In this document: in pieces, positions 32,401 through 60,865 of the stretch
Numbering within the stretch: the first letter of the stretch is position 1
Layout: the number at the start of each line of letters is the position of its first letter
Origin: an uncultured Acidimicrobiaceae bacterium
GTDB lineage: Bacteria; Actinomycetota; Acidimicrobiia; Spongiisociales; UBA5794
NCBI GenBank assembly: GCA_964579415.1
Contig: CAZOGW010000002.1
Coordinates: 14,612-78,611, forward strand
Length of the DNA stretch: 64,000 nucleotides
Reading direction: 5' to 3'
Notes under the pieces: model-generated
What the model saw: the letters and a program-made list of their open reading frames with translations, nothing else
Databases searched by the model: none
What the model was told of the DNA's origin: nothing
Translations under genes and position numbers: made by a program

Positions 32401-32514
32401 TCGCGGAACCTGCGCGCCAGCGGTGCCGTCGGGTTCGACCCGGTGGCCGACGCCATCCTCGACCTCGACGTCGCCGCCTACCTGGAACTCCTCGACGCCA
32501 AGCCGTCGGAGTGA
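29467..32514 (+). CDS. 1015-aa fusion: N-terminal TagF/TagB-like CDP-glycerol glycerophosphotransferase-family domain, a helical repeat (TPR-like) middle, and a C-terminal domain with a sialyltransferase motif-L-like signature
   Basis: RBS gaggtg upstream. TagF-family: RKTVIYLPTWGEFSS (compare YAPTWR) and ...ADLVISDYSGAIFDA. C-terminal domain: RRVAIVGPGRPPEGASPDRFDAYDVVVRPN, resembling sialylmotif L / Cst-type GNGPSL...DVxRxN. See findings. Confidence 0.65.
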   Translation: MTVGFVVWNPFQVFHMGPIAEHLDDVVFLVVNRWGLEELRAGFGGSVGAFIDRPHQIVTTRQLTALDGKLDALVCPNPFPGMNALAATRRVGIQYSMTKESYQYGTWRSQFDVNLAYGDYTVGKLLRYGPAVAVGNPRFAPWFKGADEPAPPSPRKTVIYLPTWGEFSSVPRFLPAIEALQADYEVIVKLHHKIHLTEPDKTAQLQSSGIKSSFLPHDDLLPQLRRADLVISDYSGAIFDAIYVRKPVLLLQEDPASLIGDKFTFDSIEYSRRDDIGPVVASPAQLADTVAAVLNGSIDYRDANERLRAECFAEDVHAAERCAEVIDTVAHQRTNPLSPRSHSNRPVVAPERPVEQRILRLEQQRAAGAGTSTPAGDAQEHLRARMRQSVRAAAGAAGAGTLLPALAAAPGPHGKTTRHLAVRTALRVSADPSVAIRSLEALQRRDRLDTGQRLWLADLLFVTGRGDEAARLVEGTTGTSAPDLLKTLARAYETLSGPAASWNTLTGLVSPAPVPASNNGLLASTPLSVDDILRRVTTNAASIATDCTEFETAAELYAELLKLDDDVADLHHGYGKALGGAFRLDEARQAYAEALRRGPFVDTYQRSYASSCSKAEDWEGAHHAWLRPRRDQVLDASAALGAVRRERTAFDTLDAAFTDPVVVSSPAFRDALEDSAAVAPLRPAEQWMALHWRLIRLGAFSAAYRVKDLAAWSLLGDLSRSNGNDPRSTVRLSRALVTVGEHDEARRLLSLWLAASTDEPEGRAAVTKALADLDLLQGETSSIVRWFAAAAVDRFPQDEGRRIARDVFEGRRVAIVGPGRPPEGASPDRFDAYDVVVRPNLFLDAATAAATGSERTDVAYFNSGITRLGLDDLLDVAAGQGVRQVVLRRPRDLGLLAPRLRSGKVRFVDIEPSCHLFASSFGIQRMLYDINLYRPRTIDVFNVDFFAGAVEYVDGYKIDNADISFRGYTHDFRGDFILSRNLRASGAVGFDPVADAILDLDVAAYLELLDAKPSE

Positions 32515-32519
32515 CCCAC

Positions 32520-33707
32520 ATGGCGGTGTTGTGCGTCATACCTGCCCGCGGCGGATCCAAAGGTATCCCCGGGAAGAACCTGCGCCGGGTCGGTGGGTTG
32601 ACGCTGGTGGAGCGAGCGGTCCGGTCGGCGCTGGCGGCCGAGCGGGTCGACAGGGTGGTGGTCAGCACCGACGACACCGAGATCGCCGCCGCGGCTCGGC
32701 GCAGCGGGGCCGGGGTGGTGCACCGACCTGCCGATCTGGCCGCGGATACCTCCACCAGCGAGTCCGCCCTGGTCCACGCCGTCGGATCGGTGCTCGGCGA
32801 GCCGGGTGACGGCGACGTGCTGGTCTTCTTGCAGTGCACCAGCCCCCTCATCGATCCGGCGGACATCGACCGGGCTGTCGCCATGGTCACCGAGGGGGGC
32901 TACGACTCCGTCTTCTCGGCGGTTCGGTCCCATGCCTTCGTGTGGCGAGAGGAGGATGGCGGCGCCGTCGGGGTGAACCACGACTGGCGGGTGCGCCTGC
33001 GCCGCCAGGATCTGCCTGCGGAGTACCGCGAGACCGGTGCGGTCTACGTGATGCGTATCGCCGGCTTCCTCGAGAGCGGGCACCGGTTCTTCGGGCGTGT
33101 CGGCATCTGCGTCGTGTCCGCCACCCACGGTATCGACATCGACGCCGCCGAGGACCTGGAGATGGCTCGCTTCGTAGCCCGGCGGGCGGACCCGGGCCCC
33201 CTCGCCGGCCTGGACCCGTCGCGGGTGACGGCGATGATCACCGACTTCGACGGGGTCCACACCGACGATCGCGCCTGGGTGGCCCAGGACGGGCAGGAGG
33301 CGGTCAGGGTGAGCCGGTCCGACGGTCTCGGGTTGGCTGCGCTGCGTGACTCCGGGCTGGCCCTGCTCATCCTCTCCAAGGAGCGGAACCCGGTGGTGCG
33401 GGCGCGGGCCGGCAAGCTCGGGATCGAATGTTTGCAGGGGATCGACGATAAACTGGCGGCTCTCCGCCGGTGGGCCGAGGGCAGGGGTATCGACCCGGCA
33501 GGGATCGTGTTCGTCGGCAACGACAGCAACGACGTGCCGTGCCTCGAGTTCGTCGGATGGCCGGTGGTGGTCGCGGATGCCCACCACTCGGCCCACGCCA
33601 CCGGGGCGATGACGACGCGGCGGCGCGGCGGCGCCGGCGCGCTGCGGGAGATCGCAGACCGGCTGCTGGCCGGCCCGGGCCCCTACGGATGGCAGATCGA
33701 ACAGTGA
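32520..33707 (+). CDS. neuA: Acylneuraminate (nonulosonate) cytidylyltransferase fused to a C-terminal HAD-IIIA (KdsC-type) sugar-phosphate phosphatase
   Basis: N-terminal CMP-sugar synthetase motifs (VIPARGGSKGIPGKN...FLQCTSPL). C-terminal HAD motifs (DFDGVHTDD..., VGNDSNDVPCL). GTG 32511 is an alternative start overlapping the upstream stop. Confidence 0.8.
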   Translation: MAVLCVIPARGGSKGIPGKNLRRVGGLTLVERAVRSALAAERVDRVVVSTDDTEIAAAARRSGAGVVHRPADLAADTSTSESALVHAVGSVLGEPGDGDVLVFLQCTSPLIDPADIDRAVAMVTEGGYDSVFSAVRSHAFVWREEDGGAVGVNHDWRVRLRRQDLPAEYRETGAVYVMRIAGFLESGHRFFGRVGICVVSATHGIDIDAAEDLEMARFVARRADPGPLAGLDPSRVTAMITDFDGVHTDDRAWVAQDGQEAVRVSRSDGLGLAALRDSGLALLILSKERNPVVRARAGKLGIECLQGIDDKLAALRRWAEGRGIDPAGIVFVGNDSNDVPCLEFVGWPVVVADAHHSAHATGAMTTRRRGGAGALREIADRLLAGPGPYGWQIEQ

Positions 33708-33709
33708 GG

Positions 33710-34582
33710 ATGCAGATGAGCGTGATCGATGTCGGAGGACGCCCGGTCGGCGACGGTGAGCCTGTCTACGTCATCGCCGAGATCGGGATCAACCACAACG
33801 GCGACGTCGAGATCGCCAAGCAACTCATCGACGTCGCGGTGGAGGCCGGGTGCGACGCGGTGAAGTTCCAGAAGCGCACCCCCGAGATCTGCGTGCCGCT
33901 CGACCAGCGGGACAAGATGCGGGAGACGCCCTGGGGCGATATGACGTACCTGGCCTACAAGGAGCGCACCGAGTTCTGGGAGTCGGAGTACCGGCAGATC
34001 GACGAGCACGCCGCCGGCCTCGGTATCCAGTGGTTCGCCTCGCCGTGGGACGTGCCCTCGGTCGACTTCCTCGAAGGGTTCGGCGTACCCACCCACAAGG
34101 TGGCGTCGGCCAGCCTCACCGACGAGGCGCTACTCAAGGCGCTGGCGGCGACCGGCAAACCTCTCATCGTCTCCACCGGCATGTCGACGATCGACGAGAT
34201 CGACCGCGCCATGGAGTTGCTGGCGGGGTCGGATGTGGTCCTTCTCCACTCGACGTCGACGTACCCGTGCCCCCCCGAGGAATCCAACCTGAGGACCATC
34301 ACCACCCTCCGGGAGCGTTACCGCGTCCCGGTCGGCTACTCGGGCCACGAACGCGGGTTGCAGGTCACCCTGGGAGCGGTGGCGCTGGGAGCCGTCGCCG
34401 TCGAGCGCCACATCACCCTCGACCGGACCATGTGGGGATCGGACCATGCGGCCAGCGTCGAACCGCAGGGTTTGCGCCATCTGGTCCGCGACATCCGCAT
34501 CATCGAGACGGCGTTGGGTGACGGGGTCAAGCGGGTCTTCCCCGGCGAGGAGGAGCCGCGGCGGCGCCTCCGCTCGGCGTGA
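33710..34582 (+). CDS. neuB: NeuB-family nonulosonic acid synthase (TIM-barrel only, short form lacking the C-terminal SAF domain)
   Basis: VYVIAEIGINHNGD...AKxAG.DAVKFQKRT...LxSTGMSTIDEIDRAM...HSTSTYPCP. Start ATG 33710 is preceded by the gagga RBS, and its TGA overlaps the neuA stop. Confidence 0.85.
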   Translation: MQMSVIDVGGRPVGDGEPVYVIAEIGINHNGDVEIAKQLIDVAVEAGCDAVKFQKRTPEICVPLDQRDKMRETPWGDMTYLAYKERTEFWESEYRQIDEHAAGLGIQWFASPWDVPSVDFLEGFGVPTHKVASASLTDEALLKALAATGKPLIVSTGMSTIDEIDRAMELLAGSDVVLLHSTSTYPCPPEESNLRTITTLRERYRVPVGYSGHERGLQVTLGAVALGAVAVERHITLDRTMWGSDHAASVEPQGLRHLVRDIRIIETALGDGVKRVFPGEEEPRRRLRSA

Positions 34583-34592
34583 CGGTCGGCGC

Positions 34593-35327
34593 TCAGGAGA
34601 CCCGACGGAACATGAAGCTGGCGTAGTTGACGTCGGGGCGGATGTTGCGCACCTGCAACGGCTCGAACCCGGCCTCCCCGAGAAGCTGCCAGAACTCGTC
34701 GATGGCGTACGACGTGGCCGTGATGTAGTGAGATGCGTAGTCCCCGCTCTTGGGCAGGAACCGGGGATTGCCGTTGTCGTACCTGATCTGGATCAGGCCG
34801 AGCCCACCCGGCTTGGCGGCGCCGGAGAGGGCGTGCAGCACGGCCACGCCGTATTCCTTGCTGGGGAAGTGCTGGAAGACGGCGGTGCTCAACACGATGT
34901 CGAAGCTCTCCCGGTAGGGGGCCATGGCGTCGGCGGGAGCGCCGGTGAGGTGCACCCCGGTGAAGTCCCCGAAGCCGGCCTGCTCCGCCTGGGTGCGGCA
35001 CTCGTCGAGGTTCGGTCCCGAGATGTCGACGCCGACGTAGCGACGGGAGACGGGTGCCAGCGCCACCACGTTGCTACCCCCGCCGGGGCCCCACTCCAGG
35101 ACGGCCAGTCCCGCACCGGGAGCCAGGGGCGGTTGGGCGAGGCTGCGGCGGAACACGTCGAGTTCCCGCCTGACCCGGGTCCCGATGGCCAGCCAGGCGC
35201 GGTCGTCGGCGTAGCGCCCGAAGCCGCGCCAGTGGGAATGCTCCCGCTTCTTGTCGTCATGGGAGCTGCAGGCCCACACGTCGGCGGCGAGGCGCTGTTG
35301 TGCGATGAGGTCCGATTCCGATGTCAT
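34593..35327 (-). CDS. Class I SAM-dependent methyltransferase
   Basis: Motif I LAVLEWGPGGGSN and the later GGLGLIQI. About 244 aa; sits at the end of a minus-strand operon. Confidence 0.7.
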   Translation of the reverse strand: MTSESDLIAQQRLAADVWACSSHDDKKREHSHWRGFGRYADDRAWLAIGTRVRRELDVFRRSLAQPPLAPGAGLAVLEWGPGGGSNVVALAPVSRRYVGVDISGPNLDECRTQAEQAGFGDFTGVHLTGAPADAMAPYRESFDIVLSTAVFQHFPSKEYGVAVLHALSGAAKPGGLGLIQIRYDNGNPRFLPKSGDYASHYITATSYAIDEFWQLLGEAGFEPLQVRNIRPDVNYASFMFRRVS

Positions 35328-35346: not shown

Positions 35347-36210
35347 TCAGGTCGGGGGTACCGCCGACGAGAACCTGTTGGCGACCAGGGCCGCCATCTG
35401 CTCGTCGGGGAGATACCGCCGCGCCGCCTGGTGCCACAGCCCCTCCACCTTGGTGAGACGCCTGTCGTTGGCGGTGCGGGGGCGGGTCCACGGCTTCGAT
35501 CCGACGTAGTGGAGGAACCGGACGTCCCATCGCTCGATCTCCCCCTCCACCGATTCGAGCCTGTCGGGGAACATGCGCTTGGTGCTGTTGTAGCGGATCG
35601 GCAGCCAACGCACCCGGTAGGGGTAGAAGTAGAGGTTGAGTACCGCCTGGTCGGCCTTGCCGGTGTGGGGCCGGGCGTCGGCGAGCCGGGTCCGCGCCGT
35701 CAGGTCGTGGTAGGTGGCGCCGCCGAGGTAGCGCCGGCCCACCCGGAAGACGCCGGAGTTGAAGAACGGGAGCGGCTGCTGACCGCGGCGGGAAGCGGCC
35801 CGCACCGCGGCGAAACCGTCGTGGCCATCCGCCGGGTGCAGCAGCTCGGAGATGTCGCCCAGACACAACATGTCGGCGTCGAGGCACAACACCCGGTCGA
35901 ACTCGGTGAACCGGAACGCCTCAAGAATGAGGAACGCCGCCACCAGGTGTTGTGGCGTATCGAGGGCGGCGCGGCCCTGGGCCTGGAGGTGGGCCAGCGA
36001 CGGCGGCGATCCCTCGACGATGCGGAGTGACGGGTACCGGCGTCGCAGCAGGTCGGCGTTGGCCGCGGAGAGCCCGTTGTCGGGCGTGAGAACCAGCCAG
36101 GGTTCCTCGAGCCACGGGTTGTGCTCCAGCACCGTGGAGAGGAAGACGACGAAAGCGGGAACGAAATCGTCGGTGACCACGGTGACGATCGCCGCGCCCG
36201 GCGCCGTCAT
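35347..36210 (-). CDS. GT8-family (LgtC/glycogenin-like) retaining glycosyltransferase
   Basis: VTVVTDDFVPAFVVF... DxD context VLCLDADMLCLGDISELL; FNSGVFR; and the HYVGSKPW tail. Start at MTAPGAAIV with a 4-nt overlap with the upstream gene. Confidence 0.75.
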   Translation of the reverse strand: MTAPGAAIVTVVTDDFVPAFVVFLSTVLEHNPWLEEPWLVLTPDNGLSAANADLLRRRYPSLRIVEGSPPSLAHLQAQGRAALDTPQHLVAAFLILEAFRFTEFDRVLCLDADMLCLGDISELLHPADGHDGFAAVRAASRRGQQPLPFFNSGVFRVGRRYLGGATYHDLTARTRLADARPHTGKADQAVLNLYFYPYRVRWLPIRYNSTKRMFPDRLESVEGEIERWDVRFLHYVGSKPWTRPRTANDRRLTKVEGLWHQAARRYLPDEQMAALVANRFSSAVPPT

Positions 36211-36971
36211 GCGACCAGCTCTTCGAACACGGCCCGCTCGAACACCCCAGGGCCGCCTCCGGCAGTGGCGTCGAGCAGCCGGATCCCCTCGGTCTCCATC
36301 TCGGACTTCACCACCCGGTAGCTCTGCAGCAGCGGCGCATCGTCGCCGGCGCCATCGCACCCGAGGAGCACGATCTCACCGAAGCCCATCAGGCGGGCCA
36401 GCACCAGGGCGAAGGTCGTCACGGTGTCGTGGGCGTCATCGAGCGGCTGTGCCGGGTCGAGGTTCATCGTCCCCCGCTCCTCGACCCGGAGTCTGGGATC
36501 GTCGAAGAGAAGGAAACGCACCTCGGAGAGGGGGAAGAGACTCTCGGCGTGCAGCAGCGAACGGAACCGGAAGGGAAAGAACTTGGTCACGCCGCCGGTC
36601 CGCTCCCCCAACAGCGTCGCCAGCTCGGCATCGAGTCGGGGTTCGGGGTTCCCCCAGCCCCCGAACAGCTCGTGGCCGGCGCCGCAGTAATAGGTGGGCT
36701 TCCATCGATCGAGTGCCGGGTGGCGGACCACCCAATCGGTGCCGAAGGCGGGCGTGTCCCCGATGAGCGACAGGTCCTGGGTCAGCAGCGACGGCCCGCC
36801 GGCGATGACGAAACACCGCTCACCGGCATGGCTGTTGCGGAGCTGCTCGATGCGGTCCAGCTCACCGCTCTCCCCGTAGGCGCGGCTGAGCCGGCGGCGC
36901 TGCAGCATCTGGCGATCCGACAGGCCCTGGAGGGAGTCTGCGAGCGCGGGCATGCCGGAGGGTGAGGTCAC
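36207..36971 (-). CDS. DUF115 / MptE-like (Maf, motility-accessory-factor-like) protein; candidate nonulosonic-acid transferase
   Basis: CFVIAGGPSL motif (compare Cst-II VIIAGNGPSL) followed by LLGCDGAGDD. Translationally coupled to the GT8 gene. Confidence 0.55.
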   Translation of the reverse strand: MTSPSGMPALADSLQGLSDRQMLQRRRLSRAYGESGELDRIEQLRNSHAGERCFVIAGGPSLLTQDLSLIGDTPAFGTDWVVRHPALDRWKPTYYCGAGHELFGGWGNPEPRLDAELATLLGERTGGVTKFFPFRFRSLLHAESLFPLSEVRFLLFDDPRLRVEERGTMNLDPAQPLDDAHDTVTTFALVLARLMGFGEIVLLGCDGAGDDAPLLQSYRVVKSEMETEGIRLLDATAGGGPGVFERAVFEELVA

Positions 36972-37663: not shown

Positions 37664-38599
37664 ATGATGCGGTGCCCGGTATGTGGCCGGTTGACCCGCT
37701 CGCGGAGCTATCCCTTCCTCAACGTGGGCCGGCACCGGCATCCGACCTTCGACGGCCGGCACCTGTCGGCCTGCTCCCGGTGCGACTCGATGTGGTGCAC
37801 CGACGCGCCCACCAACGGCGAGCTGGGCGACTACTACGCCACCAGCTACGTCCCGGCGAGAATGGGCGAGGCCGACAAGGACACCTGGCCCATCTGGGAT
37901 ACCCGGGCGTACTCGCAGATCATGCTGGCTCGCCTCTTCGTCGACTGGGCACCGGGAGACCTGTTCGTCGACGTGGGCCCGGGCAACGGTGCCGCCCTCT
38001 CCGTGGCGCCGCTGCTGCTGCGGGACGCCCACCTCGGATGTGTCGAGTTCAATCCCCACGCCATCGAGTTCTTCCGCCGCCACGTTCCCGACATCACGGT
38101 CACCGAGTCGATCGAGGAGTTCGCCCCGGGTTCGGCCAAGATGGTCTACAGCGCCCACAGCCTCGAGCACTACCGCCCCGGCGACGCCTTCGACGGTCTG
38201 CGCGGCATCGCCCGGGCCCTGGCGCCGGGCGGTGTCCTGGCGCTGGAGGTGCCGTGGGCCCCATCGGCCCGTACCATCGCCGCCGGACGCCACACCCCCC
38301 ATCTGTTGTTCTTCTCGCCCCAGGGCCTGCAGCGCCTGCTCACACGTGCCGGTTTCGAGGTGGTGTTGTGGTTCACCTCGCGGGGACGGCGCGGCAACCG
38401 TGACGCGGTGGCGGACCACCCGGTTCCCCCGGACCTCGGTCGTGGCCTCGCCGCCCGCCTCTCCACCTTTGTCACCGGCGACCTGATGGCCTCGGTCCCC
38501 CGCGACGGCCAGCCCATCAAAGGTGTCATCAAGGTCGTGGCCGTCAACGGCGGGCGCCGCCTGATCGGCGGTCAGGCAGATGCCAGCAGGATGCGGTAG
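37664..38599 (+). CDS. Class I SAM-dependent methyltransferase with an N-terminal Cys4 zinc-ribbon
   Basis: CPVCG...CSRCDSMWC zinc ribbon; motif I LFVDVGPGNGAAL; post-II GGVLALEVP. Its 3' end overlaps the convergent ADH gene by 28 nt. Confidence 0.7.
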   Translation: MMRCPVCGRLTRSRSYPFLNVGRHRHPTFDGRHLSACSRCDSMWCTDAPTNGELGDYYATSYVPARMGEADKDTWPIWDTRAYSQIMLARLFVDWAPGDLFVDVGPGNGAALSVAPLLLRDAHLGCVEFNPHAIEFFRRHVPDITVTESIEEFAPGSAKMVYSAHSLEHYRPGDAFDGLRGIARALAPGGVLALEVPWAPSARTIAAGRHTPHLLFFSPQGLQRLLTRAGFEVVLWFTSRGRRGNRDAVADHPVPPDLGRGLAARLSTFVTGDLMASVPRDGQPIKGVIKVVAVNGGRRLIGGQADASRMR

Positions 38600-39726
38600 A
38601 GGGCATCGTCCCCGTAGCGGACAGGGTTGTTGCCGAGGCGCTCGACGTTGACCGACTCCGCCAGCCTGCGCAGGCCGGGCTCGTCGCCGATACCCACCTC
38701 TCCCAGCGACGCCGGAAGGTCGATCTCCCGCAGCAGGGCGTTGAATCGTTCCCGGGCGGTGCCTTCCGCAGCGGCTCCAAGCCGGGACCTGATCTCCTCC
38801 ATCACGGAGAGGTGGGTGGCCCGATCGACGGTGGCCTGGAGATCGGCGGGGTCGGCAGCGGAGTGGGCGTCGATGAAGGCGCCCAGCGTCAGTGCCACCG
38901 CGCTGCCATGGTTGACGCCGTAGCCCTTGGTGATGGCGTACGACAGGGCGTGGGCCGCCGTGGTCCTCGACACGTCGATGGCCTTGCCGGCGAGGTGGCT
39001 GCCGATGCTCATGGCGCGCGCCGAGTCGATGTCGGGTCGGTTAACAAAGGTCTCGATGGCGGGGAGGAGCAGGTCGAGGGCACGCCGGGCGCGGCGGCGG
39101 CTCCACGGCGAAGCGGCCGCCGCCCACAGGCTCTCGACCGCCTGGCACACTGCGTCGATGCCGGAGGTGGCCCGCTGGTGCGCCGAGCCGCTCATGGCGA
39201 GCCGGGGGTCGAGGACGATGTGGTCGGCGTACATCCCCGGCCCGGCGATGGAGAACTTCTCCTCACCGGAGTAGACGACGGCGAAGTGGGTGGCCTCGCT
39301 CCCCGAGCCGCTCGTGGTCGGCACCAGCACCAGCGAGCGGTCGCGGGAGGCGATCGTGCCACCTTCCCGGATGGTCGCTTCGAGCCGGTGCGTCGCCGTG
39401 GATCCGTAACCACACAGCAGCTTGGCCATGTCCATGGCGCTGCCTCCGCCGACACCCAGCACCAGGTCCGGCTCCCACTCGGCGGCCAGGGCCAGCCCCA
39501 CTGCCAGGTCGGCGGCGTCGGTGTTGGGGGCGAAGTCGCTCCAGCGGTGCACCTCGGCGACCGCCTCCAGCCCGGGCAACATGGCGGCGGCGCCGCTGGC
39601 CTCGAACGAGCGTCGCCCGCACACCAGCATGATCCGCCGTGCCTGCAGCGCCCGGGCGATCCCGGGAACATCGCCGGCGGCGCCGTCGCCGTAACTGGTT
39701 GGCACCTTGCGGGCCGGTTCCTTCAC
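38572..39726 (-). CDS. Iron-containing (group III) alcohol dehydrogenase; predicted phosphonoacetaldehyde reductase (PhpC/FomC-like)
   Basis: Fe-ADH family motifs (GGGSAMDMAK, GxxHxxxH-type metal region AHALSYAITKGYGVNHG). Translationally coupled (ATGA-type overlap) to the phosphonopyruvate decarboxylase gene. Confidence 0.7.
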   Translation of the reverse strand: MKEPARKVPTSYGDGAAGDVPGIARALQARRIMLVCGRRSFEASGAAAMLPGLEAVAEVHRWSDFAPNTDAADLAVGLALAAEWEPDLVLGVGGGSAMDMAKLLCGYGSTATHRLEATIREGGTIASRDRSLVLVPTTSGSGSEATHFAVVYSGEEKFSIAGPGMYADHIVLDPRLAMSGSAHQRATSGIDAVCQAVESLWAAAASPWSRRRARRALDLLLPAIETFVNRPDIDSARAMSIGSHLAGKAIDVSRTTAAHALSYAITKGYGVNHGSAVALTLGAFIDAHSAADPADLQATVDRATHLSVMEEIRSRLGAAAEGTARERFNALLREIDLPASLGEVGIGDEPGLRRLAESVNVERLGNNPVRYGDDALYRILLASA

Positions 39727-40859
39727 GGCGCCGGCTCGGCGAGCGCCTTCATGAAGGCTGCCTTGGAGTCGGCGGGTGAGCGGGTGGGGCGGCCCAGGTC
39801 GGAACGATGCCCGGGGCGGACCACCAGTTCCAGGAGGCTCGGCCCGCCACCGCGGCGCATCTCCGCCACGTTGCGTTCCAGGTCCGTCACCCCGGTCAGC
39901 GACCGCGCCCAGCGGTACCCGGCGGCGATGCCGAGCGCGGGCACGTCCACGACGTCGATCGACGTCGGCTGGCCGCCGACGCTGTCATGGACCCCGTTGT
40001 TGAACACGACGTGGAAGTAGTTGGCCGGGGCGTGATCTGCGATGACGGCGAGGCTGCCCATGTGCATGAGCAGCGCACCATCGCCGTCGAGGCACCACAC
40101 CTCGCGGTCCGGTTCGTCGAGGGCGACGCCGAGGGCGATCGAGGAGGCGTGGCCCATGCCGCCGACGGTGAGGAAGTCGAGAGCGCGGTCCTCCCCGGCG
40201 CCGCTGCGCAGCTCGAACAGCTCCCGGCTCAGCATCCCGGTGGTGGACACGATGACGGCATCGTCGCCCAACAACCCGACCAGAGCGCCCAGCGCCTCCT
40301 CCCGGGTGGGTACCGCGGCGTCGGGCGACGGGTCGACGGGCACGACCGGTGCGAAGGTCCCCTTCTCCACCAGGAGGACGAAGGGCCCGCTGCGCTCCTC
40401 GGCGAGCCGGACCGCTTCGGCCACGACCTGGGCCGCATCCTCCGGCTCCCGGGGCAGCACCGACCACGGCAGGTCCATGCCGTCCAGCATCGACGTCATG
40501 ACCCGTCCCTGCTTGACGTGCTGCGGCTCGTCCTTGACGCCGGGCTGGCCCCGCCAGCCGATCACCAGGAGCATGGGGACGCCGTAGACGTCGGGGTCGG
40601 CCAGCGACAGCAGCGGGTTCACCGTGTTCCCGGTCCCCGAGTTCTGCAGGTAGACGGCGGCAGGGCGGCCGGTGCGCAGGTAGTGGCCGATGGCGATGCC
40701 GACCGAGCCGCCCTCGTTGGCGGCGATGACGTGTCGCGAGCGGGGTAGCTCCGCCATGACGTGCCGCCCCAGTTCCTTGAGCAGGCTGTCGGGCACCCCG
40801 GTGAAGAACGTGATCCCCTGCGCTTCGAGCCAGGCGACGAAGTCCTCCGCTCGGATCAT
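39723..40859 (-). CDS. ppd: Phosphonopyruvate decarboxylase (TPP-dependent)
   Basis: 378 aa with a TPP pyrimidine-binding N-domain and a C-domain carrying the GDG(X)n NN-like motif ([17 protein letters not shown]...FNNG). Start [12 protein letters not shown] at 40859 overlaps the ppm stop by 4 nt. The annotated upstream extension to 41825 is a shadow frame. Confidence 0.8.
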
Positions 40860-42166
40860 GTGGCGTTCTCCGGGACGATGGTGAGCACCTCGGAGATGGG
40901 GGCGATCATCTGGTCGGCTTCGAGGGAGCGGCCGTGGGTGAGAACGCTCTCGGCGACGCGTCGCATCTGCGGGTAGGCGGCACGGAGCATGTGGTTGGCG
41001 TAGATCACGATGCGCACGCCGGCATCGGCCAGCTCGGCCTCGGTGACCTGGTTGTACGACGTGGGCACGGCGACGATGGGGACCTGCTTGGCGAACTTGG
41101 CGGCATGGGCGCAGAACTCGAACACCTCTTCGGGATCCCTGCGCCGGCTGTGGATCATGATCCCGTCGGCGCCGGCATCGACGTAGGCTTCGGCCCGCTC
41201 GACGGCGTCGTCGACTCCCTTGTCGAGGATCAGGCTCTCGATACGGGCGATCACCATGAAGTCGGAGGTGATCTGCGACTGCTTGCCGATGGCGATGCGG
41301 CCGCAGAAGTCCTCGATGGAGGACTGGGTCTGGGTGACGTCGGTACCGAAGAGCGAGTTGCGCTTGAGGCCTTCCTTGTCCTCGATGATCACCGCCGACA
41401 CTCCGAGGCGCTCCAGGGAGCGCACCGTGAAGGCGAAGTGCTCCGGCTTGCCGCCGGTGTCGCCGTCGAAGATGAGGGGCTTGGTGGTGACCTCGAACAA
41501 TTCGTTCACCATCTGCAGCCGGGAGCTGATGTCCACCGCCTCGATGTCGGGTTTGCCCCGGGAGGTGGAATCGGTCAGCGAGCTGGACCACATCCCGTCG
41601 AATTCGACGGTCCTCCCGTCGCGCTCCACCTGGGCGTTCTCGACGATGAGCCCGGACAGCCCGCTGTGGGCCTCCATGATGCGCACCACCGGCTTGTTGG
41701 CCAGCAGGCGCCCCAGGCGCGCCAGGCGGACGTTGGGTGTGGTCCCCACCTGTTTGATGGCGGCGTTGAGCTGGGTCGAGGAGATGCCCTCCGTGTAGGG
41801 GACCTCCACCAACTCCCCTCCCCACTCCGCCAGGGCGTCGATGACCCGCTGGCGGGTGTCCCGCTGCACGCCGCTGCGCCAGTCGTCTCCGTGCACCACG
41901 AAGTCGGGGCGGAGGCGCTGCAGGTTGGGGACGTAGTCCAGAGTCTCCTGGGCCACCACCACGGTCACGCCCTTGAGGTTCTCCACCACCGCCCGGCGCT
42001 GCTCGTAGGTCATGTGCGGCAGCCGCTTGTAGCCGGAGATGGCCCGGTCGGTGAGCAGGCCGACGGTGACGTCGCCGATCTCGGCGGCGCGTCGGAGGAT
42101 GTTGATGTGGCCGGGGTGGATGAGGTCGGCGCTCATGCCCACGTACACGCTGGGGCGGGTTGACAT
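40856..42166 (-). CDS. ppm: Bifunctional phosphonate cytidylyltransferase (PntC-like HxGH nucleotidyltransferase) fused to phosphoenolpyruvate phosphomutase (Ppm)
   Basis: N-terminal approximately 140 aa: [15 protein letters not shown] (HxGH) plus an RISSTQ-like region [10 protein letters not shown], i.e. the GlpT/TagD-type cytidylyltransferase fold. C-terminal PEP mutase: [16 protein letters not shown]...VIIEDK...IARIES. Start at ATG 42166 ([10 protein letters not shown]); the 746-aa annotated ORF upstream of this is a shadow frame. Confidence 0.85.
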
Positions 42167-42195: not shown

Positions 42196-44964
42196 TCAGG
42201 TGATCTCGAACGGGGAGGGGATCGGGTAGAGGGAATCGAGGAGCGAACGAACCACCGCCGCCTGGCGGGCGTGGTCGATGTCGGTGTGGAGGGTGGCGTT
42301 GAGGCAGAAGTACGTCGGCCGCCGCGACACGATGTCGTGGACTCGCCGCGCCATGTCGGCCCGACCGGTGTCGAGATACACGTAGGCGCCGGACGGCTGC
42401 GGCCACTCCACCGCGGCGCCGGTGGCGACGCCGTAGAAGTGGGCGAACATGCTGGGGATGGCCAGGTCGGTGGCCGACCTGAACCGGGCGGCCCTGGTGC
42501 GGGTGTACTCCTCCGGGTAGCGGCGTTCCATCTCCTCCAGCACGGAGCGGCGCAGGGCGTGGGGGATGTGCTGGACCTTGCGGTCGAAGCGGATGCCGAA
42601 GTCCCGGGCGATGATGTCGGAGGCGTTGTAGGCGGCCCAGTCGGTGGGGATCGCGTCGGGACCCGGTCGCCCCTCGTAGATGTACTGGGTGGGGGCGAAC
42701 CGCACCTTGCTCAACCCGGCACGGGTGAAGAAGTCGTCGACGGTCACCTCCCGGCCCAGGAACACGTCGTCGTTGAAGTAGAGGAAGTGCTCTGCGACGC
42801 CGGGTACCCGGTGCAGGTTGGCCTCGATGGCCTGCGAGTTGAAGGTGGGCAGCACCGACGGGTCGGGGAAGACGTCCCGGTGGGATACCACCGAGATGCG
42901 CTCGTCGGAGGTGTCCAGCCAGGCCGGCACCTGGTCGGCGGTCACCAGGTGGATGTGGCGGACGAACGGGGCGTACATCCACACCGACCGCAGCGAGTAG
43001 CGCAGCTCGTCGCGGTCGATGAAACGCTCGGCGTTGTCGGCGCTGGTGAGCGAGGTTCCACCCGCACCGCTGTGGGCGGCATGGGCGCGGCGCCATTCCG
43101 GGTCGGCCGGGTCGACCCAGGTGTAGACGACGTCGACCTCGCCGACGGTGTGGTGGCGGCCGACGGAGCTCACCGGCCGGGTCGGGGGCGGTGCCCCCTC
43201 CAGCAGCTCGGGGAACTCTGCCGTCCAGTCGACTCGGGCGGCGCGTGGCTCCACTGTGATGACCCGCTGCTTGGCGGGAACCGGCGCCACGAACATCACC
43301 CCGAGGCCCTGCACGCGGGCGGCGCCCTGCGGGAGACCGCCCGGGGCCGGCCCGACGGCGATCGATCGGGCCGGGAAGAGGTCCTCGAAGGTGACGGTGC
43401 CCATACCGACCATGCGGGACCTGCGGTCGCCCCCCGCCAGGTGAACCACCAGCCCCGGGTAGTCCCGGCCCACCGCCACCAACACGTCACCGAGCATGCG
43501 CTTGTCCCGCTCGGCCACGGCGCACAGCGGCCTGCCGTCGACCTCGGCGACGGCAAAGGCGAGCCCGGCCTCTTTGGCCGCCGTGGCGAGGACGGCGGCC
43601 AGCGCACGGCGTTGCCGGTCCGGGGTGGCGCCGAGGGCCTTCACCACGGGAGGCACGGCGGGCGGCCTCGGAGAGGCGGCGCCGTCCGCCGCGGTGCCGG
43701 CTGCGGGCGTGCCGTCCGCCAGCTCGTCGACCTCCCGCTTGCGGGCCACCTGCAGGATGTCGTGCCACGTCTTGAGCAGCCGCGCCTCGATGCGGGGGTA
43801 GCGAGTCATGGTAAGGCGGGCGCGCTGCTTGGCGCGAAGGGTGACGTCGCCGATGCCTTTGGGCCGGCCGGCACGGAGGCGGCTGTTCTGCCGGGAGAGG
43901 TGGCGATTCTCCGTCTCGAGGCGGCGGTTGCGCCCCATCAGCTCCCTGGTGCGTGCCCGCACCTGCCAGCGGGCGAAGTCGTAGGGTTCGCCGTTGTCGA
44001 TCAGATCGACGATGGCGTCGGCGCACGCTCTCCCTGCCGTCCCGTGGTTGACGAAGAAGCGGTCGACGAAGCCGCGGTAGGCGGCGTCATCGGCGAGCCG
44101 GCTGCGGGCCTCGGCGACGGCATCGTCGAGGGGGCGGCCCGACTCCCACACCACGCCGAGGCCGGCCAGGTGGGAACGGTCGATGTCGGCGGCGGAGAGC
44201 CGGTGGTAGTCCTCCGCCTCGGGATCGGCGTCGCCCACCAGGACCAGCGGCCGCCGGGCGTAGAGGGCATCGAAGGCGGCGCCGGAGAAGTCGGTGATGA
44301 CGAAGTCGGCGGCGCCGATCAGTTCGGCGGGCGAACGGTCGGCGCCGACCAGGCTGCAGTTGGGGGGAAGGATTCCGGCGGCGCGGGGGTCTTCGGCGTG
44401 GTGGAGTTTCACGCTGATCTCGACGGGGAGGCCGGAGAGGCGGCGGCCCACCGCCTCCAGCGAGGACAGCGACCCGTAGGTGGGCAGGTAGAGGCCCTTC
44501 GCCGATCCGCCCTGTGGCGCAGGCGGCAGTCCCCCGGCGAGAAGCTCGTCGAACAGGGGGTTGCCCACGGCCCGGGCGTGGGCGAACCCGGCAACCCGGT
44601 CCACCGAGTACGGCCCGTACATGAGATTGGCGTTGGCCAGGGAGCGCCACACGCCGTACTGGTAGGTCTCCTTGCCCAGGCTGTACTGCTGCGCAACCAC
44701 CAGCGACCGCTCCAGGAGGGCGTTGGGGAGGACCGGCGTCTGGCACACGATCACATCGAAACGGCCGTCGAGGGTCCGCAGATGCTGCTTGGGGACCCAT
44801 TCCACGGTGGCGGCGGGCAGGTGTGCCCGGATGAAGGCCTCATCGACCTCGAAGTCACGGTCGCGCGTCTCAATGACGAACGTCGACGCCCCCAGCGCGG
44901 CCGCGATGGGTCGGTAATGGTGGACCTGATACCGGTTGGTGATGAGGAATGCGATACGTGTCAT
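42196..44964 (-). CDS. Fusion of a TagF-like glycerophosphotransferase-family domain, a coiled-coil linker, and a C-terminal Stealth (CR1-CR4) hexose-1-phosphotransferase domain
   Basis: TagF-like: [13 protein letters not shown]...[14 protein letters not shown]. Stealth CR1-CR4: [46 protein letters not shown]...[32 protein letters not shown]. Confidence 0.8.
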
Positions 44965-45075: not shown

Positions 45076-46785
45076 TCAACGCTCCCAGGGCGACGCCACC
45101 GGGAAGTACTCGCCGAGGAAAGCTCCGAGCCGGGCCGCCGCCGCGGGCGGATCGGTCTCCCATCGTTCGGTGGCGTTGATGCACACGACGTCGAGGTCCC
45201 GGCCCAGCGAAACCCGGCGCAGGAAGGTGCCGAGGCGGCGGCTCCCCAGGTTCTGGTAGGCGATGCGCAGCTCGCCGGGCACGGCGCGCCCCGTGCTGAA
45301 TGCGTAGTGGTGGGCAAAGGCCGAGGCCACCGACAGGTCGTCGCTGCTGCGGAAGCGGTGGCGCGCCGTGGCCTCCATGGCCTCGGGGAAGCGCTCCTCG
45401 ATCTCGAAGAGGACGCTGCGCAGCAGCGGGTACGGGGCATGGTGCAGCTTGCGTCCCACCACCGAGCCGAACTCGCCCTCGATGAGTCGGCGCCCGGTGC
45501 GTGCCGCCGCGTCGGCGGCGAGCGCCTCGCCTGCGCCCCCGGCGGGAAGTGGGATGCGGGCCTCGCTCTCGAAGAACCGGCTCAGGCCGTTGGCGGTGAA
45601 GAAGGCCTCGGGGGTGAGCGGGCGACCCAGCAGCATGTCGTCGTTGAAGTACACGAAGTGCTCGGCGAGCCCCTCGATGTGGTGGAGCCGGGCCTCGATG
45701 GCGTGCGAGTTGAACGTGGGCAGCCAGTCGCCGGGGAAGATGTCGCGATGTGACACCACGGTGAGCCCGTCGTCGGGCGCCAGCCAGGCGGGGACCTGGT
45801 CGGCGGTGACCAGGTAGATGTGGCGCACCCACCCGGCGTTGAGCCACAGCGACCTCAACGAGTAGCGCAGCTCGTCGAAGGAGGCGAACCGGGAAGGATC
45901 CACGGCGTCGGCGGCGCGTGCGCTCCCCTGGGCCGGGGACCAGCGGTCGAACCGGTCCCGCCAGGTGGGATCGGAGCTGTCGACCCAGGTGTAGACCACG
46001 TCGATCGGGTCGCGGAACTGCAGCAGGCCGCGCCCCACCGGGAATGCCGTCAGGCCCGGGTAGTCGTTCCCCGCCACCGACTCGGTGGTGGGCTCGGCGG
46101 ACCGCTCGAAGCGGTTGAGGCCGCGGTGGCCGAGTCGCTCCATCCGGTCACCCGAAGCCGTCCAGAAGCTGATCAGGATTCCGTCGTCCGGGCCCACCAC
46201 CGCGTCGGGACCGATGCTCAGGCAGCGAAAGAGCACCCAGGACTCGGCGCGCCGGGCACGGCGGCGGGTGCCCCGCGCCCGCAGCAGCCCGGTGTGGTGG
46301 CGACCGCCCCGCCGCCACCGGAGGTACCAGGCCTCGGTGGGATCGGCCCCGCTCAGGGCGCCCAGGGCGGCAGCGCGGTCGCCGGCAGGGAGCCCGAAGT
46401 GGAGTCGGCCGCCGTCGGTGTCGACGAGGAAGGGATGCAGGCCGGCCCGCTCCAGGCGGGGCAGCAACGATCCTGCGAACCCGTGGGGCAACTCGGACCG
46501 GGGTCGGTCGATGGTGCCGGTTGCCACCCAGCGCCGCCACTCGCCGGTGGCGGCAACGGTGCGACCACGCCATGCCCGCGGCCCGCCGTTAGGTGGCAGC
46601 AGGCGGGCCGTCACCCGCTGCAGCGCGGCCCTCAGCTCGAGCCGCCACCTCTCGCCCAGCAGTCCCACCACCGGCTCGGGGAAGCGCCCGTCGAGGCGGC
46701 GCAACGCCAGCGCCCGGCGCAGCCGGCCGGCGACGGTGCGGAGCCGTGCGGTGAAGACGCCGGCTCCCTCACTCTTGGGAGTCAT
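45076..46785 (-). CDS. Stealth-family hexose-1-phosphotransferase (second paralog, no TagF domain)
   Basis: [46 protein letters not shown]...PTFNSHAIEARLHHIEGLAEHFVYFNDDMLLG. Confidence 0.8.
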   Translation of the reverse strand: MTPKSEGAGVFTARLRTVAGRLRRALALRRLDGRFPEPVVGLLGERWRLELRAALQRVTARLLPPNGGPRAWRGRTVAATGEWRRWVATGTIDRPRSELPHGFAGSLLPRLERAGLHPFLVDTDGGRLHFGLPAGDRAAALGALSGADPTEAWYLRWRRGGRHHTGLLRARGTRRRARRAESWVLFRCLSIGPDAVVGPDDGILISFWTASGDRMERLGHRGLNRFERSAEPTTESVAGNDYPGLTAFPVGRGLLQFRDPIDVVYTWVDSSDPTWRDRFDRWSPAQGSARAADAVDPSRFASFDELRYSLRSLWLNAGWVRHIYLVTADQVPAWLAPDDGLTVVSHRDIFPGDWLPTFNSHAIEARLHHIEGLAEHFVYFNDDMLLGRPLTPEAFFTANGLSRFFESEARIPLPAGGAGEALAADAAARTGRRLIEGEFGSVVGRKLHHAPYPLLRSVLFEIEERFPEAMEATARHRFRSSDDLSVASAFAHHYAFSTGRAVPGELRIAYQNLGSRRLGTFLRRVSLGRDLDVVCINATERWETDPPAAAARLGAFLGEYFPVASPWER

Positions 46786-47539
46786 ACGCTGCGAGCACCT
46801 CGTCCACCGTCCCGTCGAGATGGATCTTCCCCTGCTCGAGCCACATGGCGCGGCTGCACGTGGCCCGAATCTCGTTCATGTTGTGCGTCACCATGACGAT
46901 GGAGCCGGCGTTGGCCTGCAGGTCCCGGATCCGAGCCATGCTCTTGCGTTTGAAGGTACGGTCACCCACCGCCAGCGCCTCGTCGATGAACAGCAGCTCG
47001 GGTTGCTGCAGCGTGGCGATGGCGAACGCCAGCCGCGCCCTCATCCCCGACGAGTAGGTGCGCAGCGGCCGCCTCAGGGCCTCGCCCAGCTCGGTGAAAT
47101 CGGCGACTTCCTCGATGCTCTCGCGGATCTCGCTCATCGGCATTCCCATGGCGAGGCAGCCGATTGTGATGTTGCGGTAGCCGGACAGCTCCGGCTTGAG
47201 GGCTGCCCGCACCGTGAGCAGCACCGGCTCGGAGCGGACCAGGACCGACCCCGATGTCGGTTGCAACAGGCCGGCGAGGGCACGCAGCAGCGTGCTCTTG
47301 CCCGACCCGTTGGAGCCGACGATGCCGACCACCTCGCCGACGTCGATCTGGAACGTCACTCCCTTGACCGCGTGCACCTCGTCGGAGACGCGGCTGCGGA
47401 AGCCCCCGCTCATCATCCGGCGCAGGGTGAACGATTGCTCCTCGTAGACCTTGAACCGCACGTGGATGTCGTCCGCCACGATGGCCGGTGTCCCGGTGGC
47501 GATGCTCCGCTCGGTGACGACGGCGCGCTCAACTGCCAT
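46769..47539 (-). CDS. ABC transporter ATP-binding protein of the polysaccharide/teichoic-acid exporter type (TagH/KpsT/Wzt-like, no C-terminal carbohydrate-binding extension)
   Basis: Walker A GIVGSNGSGKST, signature YSSGMRARLAFA, Walker B LLFIDEA, and the H-loop. Overlaps the permease gene by 11 nt. Confidence 0.85.
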   Translation of the reverse strand: MAVERAVVTERSIATGTPAIVADDIHVRFKVYEEQSFTLRRMMSGGFRSRVSDEVHAVKGVTFQIDVGEVVGIVGSNGSGKSTLLRALAGLLQPTSGSVLVRSEPVLLTVRAALKPELSGYRNITIGCLAMGMPMSEIRESIEEVADFTELGEALRRPLRTYSSGMRARLAFAIATLQQPELLFIDEALAVGDRTFKRKSMARIRDLQANAGSIVMVTHNMNEIRATCSRAMWLEQGKIHLDGTVDEVLAAYDSQE

Positions 47540-60836: not shown

Positions 60837-60865
60837 AGGTACTAGGTACTAGGTACTAGGTAGGT
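60837..60865. repeat. Tandem heptamer array (GTACTAG)x3, a one-base variant of the GTACTTG arrays
   Basis: Read directly: gaggtactaggtactaggtactaggtagg, between two convergent stops (60835 and 60856). Confidence 0.85.

Follow-up and report, generated by a model that had tools for sequence, protein, structure and literature searches.

A Fom1-type phosphonate cassette in an actinobacterial glycopolymer locus, predicted to supply CMP-2-hydroxyethylphosphonate for cell-surface decoration

In a 64,000-nucleotide stretch of DNA from an uncultured Acidimicrobiaceae bacterium (hereafter the window), we identified a three-gene phosphonate cassette that probably serves as a self-contained supply of CMP-2-hydroxyethylphosphonate (CMP-HEP) for the decoration of a cell-surface glycopolymer. 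Sequence, profile and comparative analyses show the enzyme identities and motifs, the coupling of the genes, the absence of genes for rival pathways and the conserved neighbourhood. The cassette, located on the minus strand, encodes a bifunctional Fom1-type fusion of a HEP cytidylyltransferase and a PEP mutase (40856-42166, 436 aa), a phosphonopyruvate decarboxylase of the Ppd/Fom2 type (39723-40859, 378 aa) and a PhpC/FomC-type phosphonoacetaldehyde reductase, which is a group III metal-dependent alcohol dehydrogenase (38572-39726, 384 aa). The first-pass annotation had described three coupled genes here, and both junctions indeed overlap by 4 bp, with ATGA at 40856-40859 joining the fusion gene to ppd and GTGA at 39723-39726 joining ppd to the dehydrogenase gene; if the latter starts at the alternative GTG at codon 8, the second junction becomes a 17-nt gap. 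A SAM-dependent methyltransferase gene on the plus strand (37664-38599; Methyltransf_23 and _11) is convergent with the dehydrogenase gene and overlaps its 3' end by 28 bp, a layout also seen in locus L081. The window contains many methyltransferases, consistent with O-methylated sugars.

The fusion protein consists of the Pfam domains PF01467 and PF13714, and its mutase part scored 415 bits against TIGR02320 (curated cut-off 320), in agreement with the earlier call of a PEP mutase with an N-terminal HxGH cytidylyltransferase. An HPGH motif is located at residue 17 and the EDK-X5-NS motif of the mutase, for which a check had been suggested, is present at residue 262. The N-terminal domain (aa 1-140, nt 41747-42166) aligned end to end with the cytidylyltransferase domain of Fom1 (PDB 5X3D, E=1.5e-67) and is 75% identical to that of Streptomyces wedmorensis, while the mutase domain (aa ~148-436, nt 40856-41725) is 73% identical. 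According to passages in PMC6697681 and PMC9088020, the Fom1 domain forms CMP-HEP in vitro (Cho et al., 2017), and because of the 75% identity the domain in the window is predicted to be HEP-specific; the earlier proposal that the fusion implies a CMP-activated phosphonate is thereby strengthened. The JGI annotation likewise names the protein a PEP mutase/HEP cytidylyltransferase. The PntC label given to the domain by the first-pass annotation was not retained, since the domain is of the Fom1-type PF01467 class and not the LicC-like PF12804 class to which the PntC characterised on 2-aminoethylphosphonate (AEP) belongs; no PF12804 match was obtained for the fusion with Pfam. A Pfam scan covering every gene-sized ORF in the window (46) gave PF01467 only once, in the domain fused to the mutase.

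The assignment of the decarboxylase stands, with 436 bits against TIGR03297 (curated cut-off 312) and the TPP_enzyme_N and TPP_enzyme_C domains. The dehydrogenase contains the Fe-ADH and ADH_Fe_C domains and is approximately 50% identical to FomC of the fom locus L018; its top NCBIfam match, TIGR03405, scored 149 bits, which is under the cut-off of 424 bits for that model. Its metal ligands are D191, Q195, H259 and H273. Two further residues, K157 and Y263, show virtually no variation and agree with the contacts described for PhpC (PMC13576164), a signature that favours the suggested reduction of phosphonoacetaldehyde. A role as a propanediol or lactaldehyde enzyme was considered and rejected, as the best PDB match is 6JKO/6JKP and not one of those enzymes. 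With all three enzymes identified, the earlier prediction of HEP formation is upheld: the mutase domain would convert PEP to phosphonopyruvate, Ppd would decarboxylate this to phosphonoacetaldehyde and thereby draw the unfavourable mutase equilibrium forward, and the reductase would yield HEP. The N-terminal domain of the fusion would then join CTP and HEP; the resulting CMP-HEP is the phosphonate counterpart of a CDP-alcohol.

The cassette forms the 3' end of a proposed seven-gene unit that extends from 48362 to 38572 on the minus strand, with gaps of -11, -17, 111, 29, -4 and -4 bp, a spacing that suggests co-transcription. The unit opens with an ABC transporter permease of the Wzm/RfbD type (47529-48362), whose top NCBIfam match is a galactan export permease model at a score under the cut-off, and a Wzt/TagH-like ATPase probably involved in glycopolymer export (46769-47539; PF00005), homologs of which were found in 14 cassette loci. 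These are followed by a putative Stealth-family sugar-1-phosphate transferase (45076-46785, 569 aa; Stealth CR1-4), which had no NCBIfam match and an N-terminal stretch of 250 aa without assignment, and by a multidomain protein of 922 aa (42196-44964), whose gene ends 29 bp before the fusion gene begins. The first-pass annotation had omitted this gene, the most tightly linked partner of the cassette, as well as a second TagF-like gene (29425-32514).

In the 922-aa protein, residues 1-325 (nt 43990-44964) are predicted to form a GT-B domain that is TagF-like but divergent, and residues 330-416 a coiled coil. A small alpha/beta domain (aa 440-570) precedes the C-terminal Stealth hexose-1-phosphate transferase domain with CR1-4 (aa 610-922, nt 42196-43137). 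We compared it to TagF (3L7J), Cps3D (8QOY), CpsY (8J2N) and GlcNAc-1-phosphotransferase. In an AlphaFold2 model (pLDDT 85.9), the Stealth domain superimposes on CpsY with a TM-score of 0.92 at 34% identity; the N-terminal domain has a GT-B fold that matches TagF no better than it matches other GT-B enzymes. Although this domain scored only 17.3 bits against Pfam Glyphos_transf, below the threshold and unlike known TagF/Stealth polymerases, HHalign gave a probability of 97.2% for the TagF-like assignment. It is also a paralog of the Glyphos_transf domain of the second TagF-like protein (31% identity over 411 aa, E=2e-38), a plus-strand gene product of 1029 aa with TPR repeats (29425-32514; PF04464 29-31 bits, cut-off 22.1). 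The coiled-coil/TPR-type multidomain build resembles that of multi-enzyme capsule polymerases, from which the 922-aa protein would differ in its proposed donor, CMP-HEP. Ten loci with homologs of it were examined, including those of Stackebrandtia albiflava and Glycomyces albus, and in every one the homolog accompanies cassette genes. The protein is a candidate for an enzyme that both uses CMP-HEP and builds the polymer. No description of a TagF-like and Stealth fusion was found in the literature searched.

A further candidate for the transfer of the phosphonyl group from CMP-HEP to the glycan is a TPR-LicD family protein of 686 aa, encoded on the minus strand 26 kb from the cassette (11189-13249). 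Its earlier assignment to the LicD family was borne out by a Pfam score of 24.8-26.2 bits (cut-off 22.6), to which only ~29 residues align, and it also carries TPR repeats. Homologs with the same architecture adjoin the cassette in Glycomyces paridis (two copies), S. albiflava, Nonomuraea and Ilumatobacter-type loci. By contrast, the LtaS-like call for 15837-17963 was not supported, the LtaS model giving 18.7 bits against a cut-off of 970, a generic match to the sulfatase fold; no homolog was present in any of the 88 comparison loci. An enzyme of the LtaS family would draw on extracellular lipid donors and not on a CMP-activated one.

At least 572 species-representative genomes carry the three-gene cassette. 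The Ppd gene comes after the fusion gene in 79 of 80 loci, and the complete order is kept across phyla (71/80 loci). The nearest relatives of the core genes, at ~80% identity, are from Jiangellaceae, Nitriliruptoria and Acidimicrobiia MAGs. Flanks of 8 kb or more were available for 60 loci. In 49 of these, across phyla, the cassette has a LicD-like or TagF-like neighbour, mostly within 250 bp, and both types are present in only 5 (Fisher p=4e-4, not corrected for phylogeny). Neither type is present in the two loci from fosfomycin producers, and in Natronosporangium hydrolyticum the cassette has no obvious transferase nearby. The LicD-like and TagF-like neighbours are candidate CMP-HEP transferases; no report of such an enzyme using a CMP-phosphonate was found in the literature searched.

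The first-pass annotation considered the gene set undescribed, which does not hold. The cassette corresponds to fom1-fom2-fomC of S. wedmorensis, with the same genes, order and domain fusion, 74/62/51% identity and the same Asp/Gln/His/His metal ligand set in FomC. In addition, HEP phosphonoglycans and pepM clusters are known from Glycomyces and Stackebrandtia, where, as outlined in PMC8942020, the glycans were purified in 2014 (Yu et al., 2014) and HEP was obtained from the exopolysaccharide of S. nassauensis; these clusters also appear as named known-cluster matches in a genome-mining table. In the loci of Glycomyces sp. NRRL B-16210 (KJ125437) and S. nassauensis (CP001778), the HEP core is located inside a polysaccharide locus (Yu et al., 2014), as in the window. 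We used congeneric loci for the comparison (G. paridis L016, G. albus L085, S. albiflava L084 and Ca. S. faecavium L013), which share with the window the cassette (73/67/60% identity in G. paridis) and the TPR-LicD, Glyphos_transf and TagF-like-Stealth proteins, the latter at 42-45% identity. In the window, however, these parts are spread over ~37 kb and combined with nonulosonic-acid, sulfotransferase, rml and RTX-repeat genes, and the host belongs to a different actinobacterial lineage. PntC (Ari1348, Tde1415; Rice et al., 2019) likewise activates a phosphonate with a cytidylyl group for cell-surface tailoring, often as a mutase fusion with LicD-like genes nearby, but differs in fold and substrate (PF12804 and AEP, as compared to the PF01467 HxGH class and HEP). 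Since the pathway type is known from fosfomycin producers and from Glycomyces and Stackebrandtia, the locus adds an example to a known kind of system and does not define a new one; what is new is the linkage to the TagF-like-Stealth gene and the LicD-like/TagF-like flanking pattern.

The similarity to the fom genes, together with the role of CMP-HEP as a transient intermediate in fosfomycin biosynthesis, could mean that the cassette contributes to a diffusible small-molecule phosphonate, either a fosfomycin-like compound or some other antibiotic derived from HEP, with the glycan genes as unrelated neighbours. We consider this extremely improbable. The fosfomycin cluster also has Fom3 (a B12 radical SAM enzyme), Fom4, FomA/B and FomD, to which the window has no equivalents, and the other filtered ORFs of the L018 fom locus (expected at the Fom3, Fom4, FomA/B and FomD-F positions) were unmatched. 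As had been noted for phosphonate tailoring genes, the Pfam scan of the 46 ORFs recovered no radical SAM, cupin/dioxygenase, NRPS or ATP-grasp genes, and no unannotated gap is big enough for an aminotransferase, radical SAM or cupin/dioxygenase gene. The cassette moreover closes a unit whose first genes encode a polysaccharide ABC exporter and a pair of Stealth transferases. Fosfomycin producers use CMP-HEP as a transient handle and hydrolyse it at a later step; in the window, where the surrounding genes encode glycan transferases and an ABC exporter, it is probably the donor. The methylphosphonate adduct of Nitrosopumilus, which stems from a PhpC-containing cluster, suggests another possibility, that an MpnS/HEPD-type oxygenase encoded outside the window converts HEP to attached methylphosphonate or hydroxymethylphosphonate. 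This is scarcely credible here: the window yielded no cupin or oxygenase ORF, HEP itself is a demonstrated substrate for this type of fused cytidylyltransferase, and the two previously unannotated stretches encode a deacetylase and an O-methyltransferase.

Among cell-surface phosphonates AEP is the most common, and it is the substrate favoured by characterised PntC enzymes; the window covers only 64 kb of the genome, so that a transaminase could be encoded elsewhere, the cytidylyltransferase could activate AEP and the dehydrogenase could have a side or salvage role. The retention of the dehydrogenase gene immediately behind ppd (71/80 loci), the phosphonate-binding Lys and Tyr of its product, and the close relationship of the cytidylyltransferase to HEP-specific Fom1 and not the AEP-specific class make AEP decoration very unlikely; in line with the first-pass annotation, no aminotransferase was identified among the 46 ORFs. 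A weightier, still doubtful, alternative concerns the transfer step: the TagF-like domains may use ordinary CDP-glycerol or CDP-ribitol from enzymes encoded outside the window, leaving the transfer of HEP to the LicD-family protein or an unrecognised enzyme. The divergence of the TagF-like N-terminal domain is compatible with this, and IspD/TarI-like genes occur together with a canonical Glyphos_transf gene in some loci of the Glycomycetaceae type. The Glycomycetaceae work of 2014 is said to include a HEP-glycerol ester, and therefore glycerol in the polymer. The Pfam scan detected no TagD/TarI-type gene in the window, and one could be located elsewhere in the genome. The use of CMP-HEP by the TagF-like domains is favoured by the lack of another local cytidylyltransferase in 27 of the 30 TagF-only loci, by the near mutual exclusion of TagF-like and LicD-like partners and by the constant position of the TagF-like-Stealth family beside cassette genes.

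Since the cassette lies within a glycopolymer locus, its end product is best read as a HEP-bearing glycan, as the earlier placement of the phosphonate on a cell-surface glycan had anticipated. A cytoplasmic phosphotransferase of the CDP-alcohol type would release CMP and pass the hydroxyethylphosphonyl group on to an undecaprenyl-linked glycopolymer, at one of its hydroxyls. Candidates for this step are the TagF-like-Stealth protein, through its TagF-like domain, the 1029-aa TagF-like protein and the TPR-LicD protein. The acceptor polymer, probably rich in sugar-1-phosphate linkages given the two Stealth enzymes, would be exported through the ABC transporter, which is probably co-transcribed. 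The locus thereby directs attention to the still-uncharacterised enzymes that attach phosphonate.

The three phosphonate genes were found on the minus strand where the first-pass annotation had placed them, and encode a 436-aa cytidylyltransferase/phosphoenolpyruvate phosphomutase (Ppm) fusion (40856-42166), a 378-aa phosphonopyruvate decarboxylase (Ppd; 39723-40859) and a 384-aa alcohol dehydrogenase (ADH; 38572-39726), as identified by ORF calling. The G+C content of the window is about 70%, and antisense shadow ORFs were excluded on the basis of codon-position GC. The junctions between the three genes are ATGA and GTGA overlaps; an alternative ADH start, a GTG located seven codons downstream and preceded by GAAGGAA, would leave a gap of 17 nt. 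The Ppm domain scores 415.2 bits against TIGR02320 (curated cut-off 319.55) and matches the mutases 5UNC (E = 1e-47) and 1M1B (E = 1e-39) in the PDB. The catalytic motif EDK-X5-NS, by which mutases are distinguished from the rest of the isocitrate lyase superfamily, was identified at residues 262-271 of the fusion ([10 protein letters not shown]) and in all 83 fetched homologs, and the mutase assignment made in the first pass thus holds. Ppd scores 436 bits against TIGR03297 (cut-off 312.5) and contains the N- and C-terminal TPP domains PF02776 and PF02775.

The N-terminus of the fusion contains a PF01467 domain (aa 12-133) with an HPGH motif at aa 17, and its 140 residues can be aligned along their whole length with the Fom1 cytidylyltransferase domain (5X3D; E = 1.5e-67 over aa 4-140, 75.2% identity). 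Fom1 from Streptomyces wedmorensis has been shown to form CMP-HEP from 2-hydroxyethylphosphonate (HEP) and CTP (Cho et al., 2017, as summarized in PMC6697681 and PMC9088020). By homology, the protein is a predicted Fom1-type bifunctional HEP cytidylyltransferase/PEP mutase, and its N-terminal domain is not a generic cytidylyltransferase. Enzymes of the PntC type that have been characterized with 2-aminoethylphosphonate (AEP) are LicC-like PF12804 proteins (Rice et al., 2019; PMC6697681), and no Pfam match to PF12804 (MobA-like NTP transferase) was obtained for the fusion protein. The earlier name "PntC-Ppm fusion" is thereby acceptable in the loose sense of Li and Horsman (2022; PMC8942020), who apply PntC to the PF12804 and PF01467 classes alike, but not in the sense of a PF12804 enzyme.

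The third gene product has the fold of a group III ADH, with matches to PF00465 (Fe-ADH) and PF25137 (ADH_Fe_C) and a metal site formed by D191, Q195, H259 and H273, of which the glutamine at the second position is also found in FomC and in the zinc site of 6JKP. It is approximately 50% identical to FomC. Its best NCBIfam match is the phosphonate-associated TIGR03405, with a score of 148.9 bits that is far below the cut-off of 423.7, and PhpC-type enzymes are very divergent. A generic 1,3-propanediol or lactaldehyde enzyme was an alternative named in the first pass for this gene; the closest solved relative is instead the sulfoacetaldehyde reductase 6JKO/6JKP, which is the structural reference for PhpC. 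In PhpC from P. fungorum, the phosphonate is contacted by Lys157 and by the strictly conserved Tyr264, which is replaced by Phe in the sulfoacetaldehyde reductases (2026 study; PMC13576164). The equivalent residues in the ADHs of the cassette, as we refer to the fusion, Ppd and ADH genes, are Y263 (74 of 74) and K157 (73 of 74), while comparison with PhpC gave no clear match for Arg349. At its 3' end, the ADH gene overlaps by 28 bp with a convergent methyltransferase gene (37664-38599, plus strand), an arrangement that is repeated in L081, the only other assembly of the same sequence.

The pathway predicted from the sequence and the comparisons thus leads from PEP via phosphonopyruvate and phosphonoacetaldehyde to HEP and CMP-HEP; the enzyme identities support the earlier interpretation of a CMP-activated HEP. 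When all gene-sized ORFs in the window were compared with Pfam, no aminotransferase, radical SAM, cupin/dioxygenase, NRPS or ATP-grasp domains were identified, in agreement with the previous reading that the window contains neither an AEP transaminase nor tailoring genes for a small molecule. The window also contains no TagD/TarI-type gene and, apart from the domain in the fusion protein, no PF01467 domain. The cassette corresponds to the Fom1/Fom2/FomC module of the fosfomycin cluster, but the window differs from that cluster in lacking the remainder: when the filtered ORFs from the fom locus of S. wedmorensis (L018) were searched with tblastn, only Fom1 matched the window, with no match for the Fom3 radical SAM methyltransferase, the Fom4 epoxidase or the FomD hydrolase. 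A HEPD/MpnS-type enzyme in the initially unannotated stretches at 48.4-50.0 kb and 55.1-57.2 kb was also considered and was ruled out by the Pfam domains found there: 48634-49929 (plus strand) encodes an RTX-repeat polysaccharide deacetylase, and 55242-57191 (plus strand) a double O-methyltransferase of the CmcI+TylF type.

Nearly every gene between approximately 8.9 and 57.2 kb is related to glycans, including glycosyltransferases, a UDP-sugar dehydrogenase, rmlCAD, a Bac_transf priming enzyme, methyltransferases, a sulfotransferase and a nonulosonic-acid module. A tightly packed minus-strand unit (48362 to 38572) ends with the three phosphonate genes. It opens with an ABC permease and an ABC ATPase, followed by a Stealth protein and a 922-aa protein and then by the fusion, Ppd and ADH, with gaps of -11, -17, 111, 29, -4 and -4 bp. 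A deacetylase gene on the plus strand stands between this unit and the array of rml, Bac_transf and GT2 genes.

Several other features of the locus were observed. The nonulosonic-acid module (32511-34582, plus strand, and 36207-36971, minus strand) includes a short NeuB synthase of 292 aa and a CTP_transf_3 cytidylyltransferase fused to a HAD domain similar to KdsC and Kdn-9-phosphate phosphatase; a nearby MptE-like/DUF115 protein could be the transferase for this module. Methyltransferases are unusually numerous (55242-57191 on the plus strand, 175-717, 23721-27482 and 34593-35327) and include a protein that combines CmcI (rhamnosyl O-methyltransferase) with TylF as well as a 1253-aa Methyltransf_24-GT2 fusion, suggesting that the sugars are extensively O-methylated. 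Sulfation of the polymer is possible as well, since a protein with a sulfotransferase domain (27598-28989, minus strand) is encoded within the locus. Four predicted secreted proteins contain many calcium-binding RTX (HemolysinCabind) repeats (9973-11154, plus; 21124-23214, minus; 48634-49929, plus; 58920-60371, plus), which in one of them are joined to an M15 peptidase and to FG-GAP repeats, and in two to polysaccharide deacetylase domains. At the locus edge, a deacetylase-RTX gene is flanked by genes for two SpoIID-domain proteins (57211-58722 and 60856-63003, both minus strand).

Candidates for the transfer of the phosphonate were sought among the neighbors. The 922-aa protein (42196-44964), the gene of which adjoins the fusion gene, and the protein encoded at 45076-46785 both score above the cut-offs of all four Stealth models (CR1-CR4), and the C-terminal Stealth domain of the former (AlphaFold model, pLDDT 85.9) superimposes on CpsY from M. 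tuberculosis (8J2N) with a TM-score of 0.92. The first approximately 325 residues are modeled by AlphaFold as a GT-B domain. This N-terminal domain is, as judged by BLASTP (31% identity over 411 aa, E = 2e-38), a paralog of the Glyphos_transf domain in the TagF-TPR protein (29425-32514, plus strand), which passes PF04464. Its own PF04464 score of 17.3 bits (E = 0.0024) is below the gathering score of 22.1, but precomputed PF04464 matches exist for two members of the family, and HHalign pairs it with the Glyphos_transf proteins that in other phyla are encoded on their own after the cassette (97.2%, E = 2.9e-11). In a fold search, TagF (3L7J, E = 7e-8) was recovered among the GT-B matches, although not as the top one, and the label TagF-like therefore reflects profile evidence rather than the fold.

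The first-pass annotation had proposed two other transferases, of which the LicD-family call stood. The TPR-LicD protein (11189-13249, minus strand) scores 24.8-26.2 bits against PF04991 (threshold 22.6), with only about 29 of the 227 model positions aligned, and a sequence search against the PDB gave no solved relative of the LicD-like domain. The "LtaS-like" protein (15837-17963) did not hold up: it scores 18.7 bits against the curated LtaS model, for which the cut-off is 970, with arylsulfatase models scoring higher, and no homolog was identified in any comparison locus. Enzymes of the LtaS/EptA type act outside the membrane and use lipid donors. This sulfatase-family gene was rejected as the phosphonate transferase because it has no comparative linkage and the wrong type of donor.

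We compared the cassette to related loci in other genomes. With one genome scanned per species, relatives of the fusion numbered at least 572, the best of which are approximately 80% identical and come from Jiangellaceae, Nitriliruptoria and Acidimicrobiia MAGs, and at least 8000 candidate matches were obtained from protein databases at E <= 1e-50. Of the 80 best loci, 71 keep the gene order fusion-Ppd-ADH, which occurs in Actinobacteria, Bacteroidota, Ignavibacteria, Proteobacteria and archaea, fom1-fom2-fomC included. Iterated profiles built from the domains in the window and spot-checked with Pfam identified LicD-like genes in 26 loci and TagF-like genes in 35. The association test was limited to the 60 loci with 8 kb or more of flanking sequence. 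A LicD-like or TagF-like gene is present in 49 of these (approximately 80%), generally no more than 250 bp from the cassette, and only 5 contain both (Fisher p = 4e-4, ignoring phylogeny). Both fosfomycin-producer loci are among the 11 with neither gene, and 27 of the 30 TagF-only loci have no other cytidylyltransferase in the fetched flanks. Nine cassette loci with NeuB were also observed (L022, L028, L052, L054, L064, L069, L070, L073 and L083), all of the LicD type and none TagF-only (Fisher p = 1e-5, ignoring phylogeny), which hints that LicD-type HEP transfer goes with polymers that contain nonulosonic acids.

Homologs to the 922-aa protein are few, with 33 found, including those in Stackebrandtia albiflava, a Stackebrandtia MAG, Glycomyces albus and Natronosporangium. 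Five of these loci were inspected, and all five have cassette genes within 10 kb (the full cassette in three, a single gene at the edge in two), with TPR-LicD and Glyphos_transf genes also present in the inspected loci. In total, the TagF-like-Stealth architecture occurs with cassette genes in 10 of 10 loci (the window, L005, L007, L011, L013 and the five inspected). In L083, a locus of the Ilumatobacter type, the cassette, two LicD-like genes, the cytidylyltransferase-HAD fusion known from the window together with NeuB, and a methyltransferase are all located within 10 kb. The modules that are scattered in the window thus recur as a set. The cassette is not always situated in a glycan locus, since in Natronosporangium hydrolyticum (L082; CP070499, 477228-498538) it is accompanied by a second Fe-ADH upstream, and neither a glycosyltransferase gene nor a LicD-like or TagF-like gene lies within 10 kb.

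CMP-HEP would mimic a CDP-alcohol, the donor from which enzymes of the LicD and TagF families transfer an alcohol-phosphate onto a hydroxyl with release of CMP. On this basis, one or more of TagF-like-Stealth, TagF-TPR and TPR-LicD may esterify HEP to a lipid-linked polymer at the cytoplasmic face, with the two Stealth domains contributing sugar-1-phosphate linkages and the product then being exported by the ABC transporter. The sulfatase-family gene was left out of this scheme because comparison loci lack homologs and its action is expected to be extracytoplasmic and lipid-dependent. A more far-reaching and rather improbable alternative is that TagF-like-Stealth is a co-polymerase with two active sites, in which CMP-HEP, as a surrogate for CDP-glycerol, alternates with hexose-1-phosphate so that the phosphonate is part of the polymer backbone. 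The product would then be a teichoic-acid-like "phosphono-teichoic acid", in which the free 2-hydroxyl of HEP serves as the next acceptor and the phosphonate is not a terminal head group. More broadly, the LicD-like and TagF-like enzymes would in that case be the long-sought interchangeable phosphonyl transferases of a widespread CMP-HEP pathway.

The esterification of HEP to a glycan has precedents, and the earlier suggestion that the gene set appears undescribed was not upheld. Apart from the fom1-fom2-fomC module and the many relatives of the fusion, numerous JGI entries among its homologs are already named [quoted passage not shown], and HEP phosphonoglycans have been published. A HEP conjugate of the S. 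nassauensis exopolysaccharide is one of two products isolated from PhpC-type neighborhoods (Li and Horsman; PMC8942020), and the "phosphonoglycans" of S. nassauensis and Glycomyces B-16210 are named as known-cluster matches in a genome-mining table. Like the window, the HEP-phosphonoglycan loci of Glycomycetaceae (Yu et al., 2014, as cited in PMC8942020) have a pepM-ppd-ADH core within a polysaccharide locus, and parts of the window are shared with the loci of G. paridis (L016), G. albus and S. albiflava, congeneric proxies for the two producers. A review stated that PepM fused to a cytidylyltransferase occurs only in the fosfomycin clusters of Streptomyces (2019; PMC9088020), which is contradicted by hundreds of non-fosfomycin loci and by the finding that 23.6% of Ppm proteins contain PF01467 fusions (Rice et al., 2019; PMC6697681). 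The locus is thus a further example of established chemistry in an actinobacterial lineage and not a new system.

According to Rice et al. (2019), the steps that follow the cytidylyl activation of phosphonates "remain enigmatic", and no report of a characterized CMP-HEP or CMP-AEP transferase was found in the searchable literature. The value of the locus is that it provides concrete candidate enzymes for this acknowledged gap, the attachment step, with the comparative pattern of LicD-like or TagF-like genes next to the cassette, their absence from fosfomycin loci, and the rare TagF-like-Stealth fusion naming the enzymes to be assayed. About half of the microbial phosphonate pathways are thought to lead to phosphonoglycans, which are also regarded as contributors to dissolved organic phosphorus in the sea, and the enzymes that attach the phosphonate would therefore matter beyond the organism from which the sequence was obtained.
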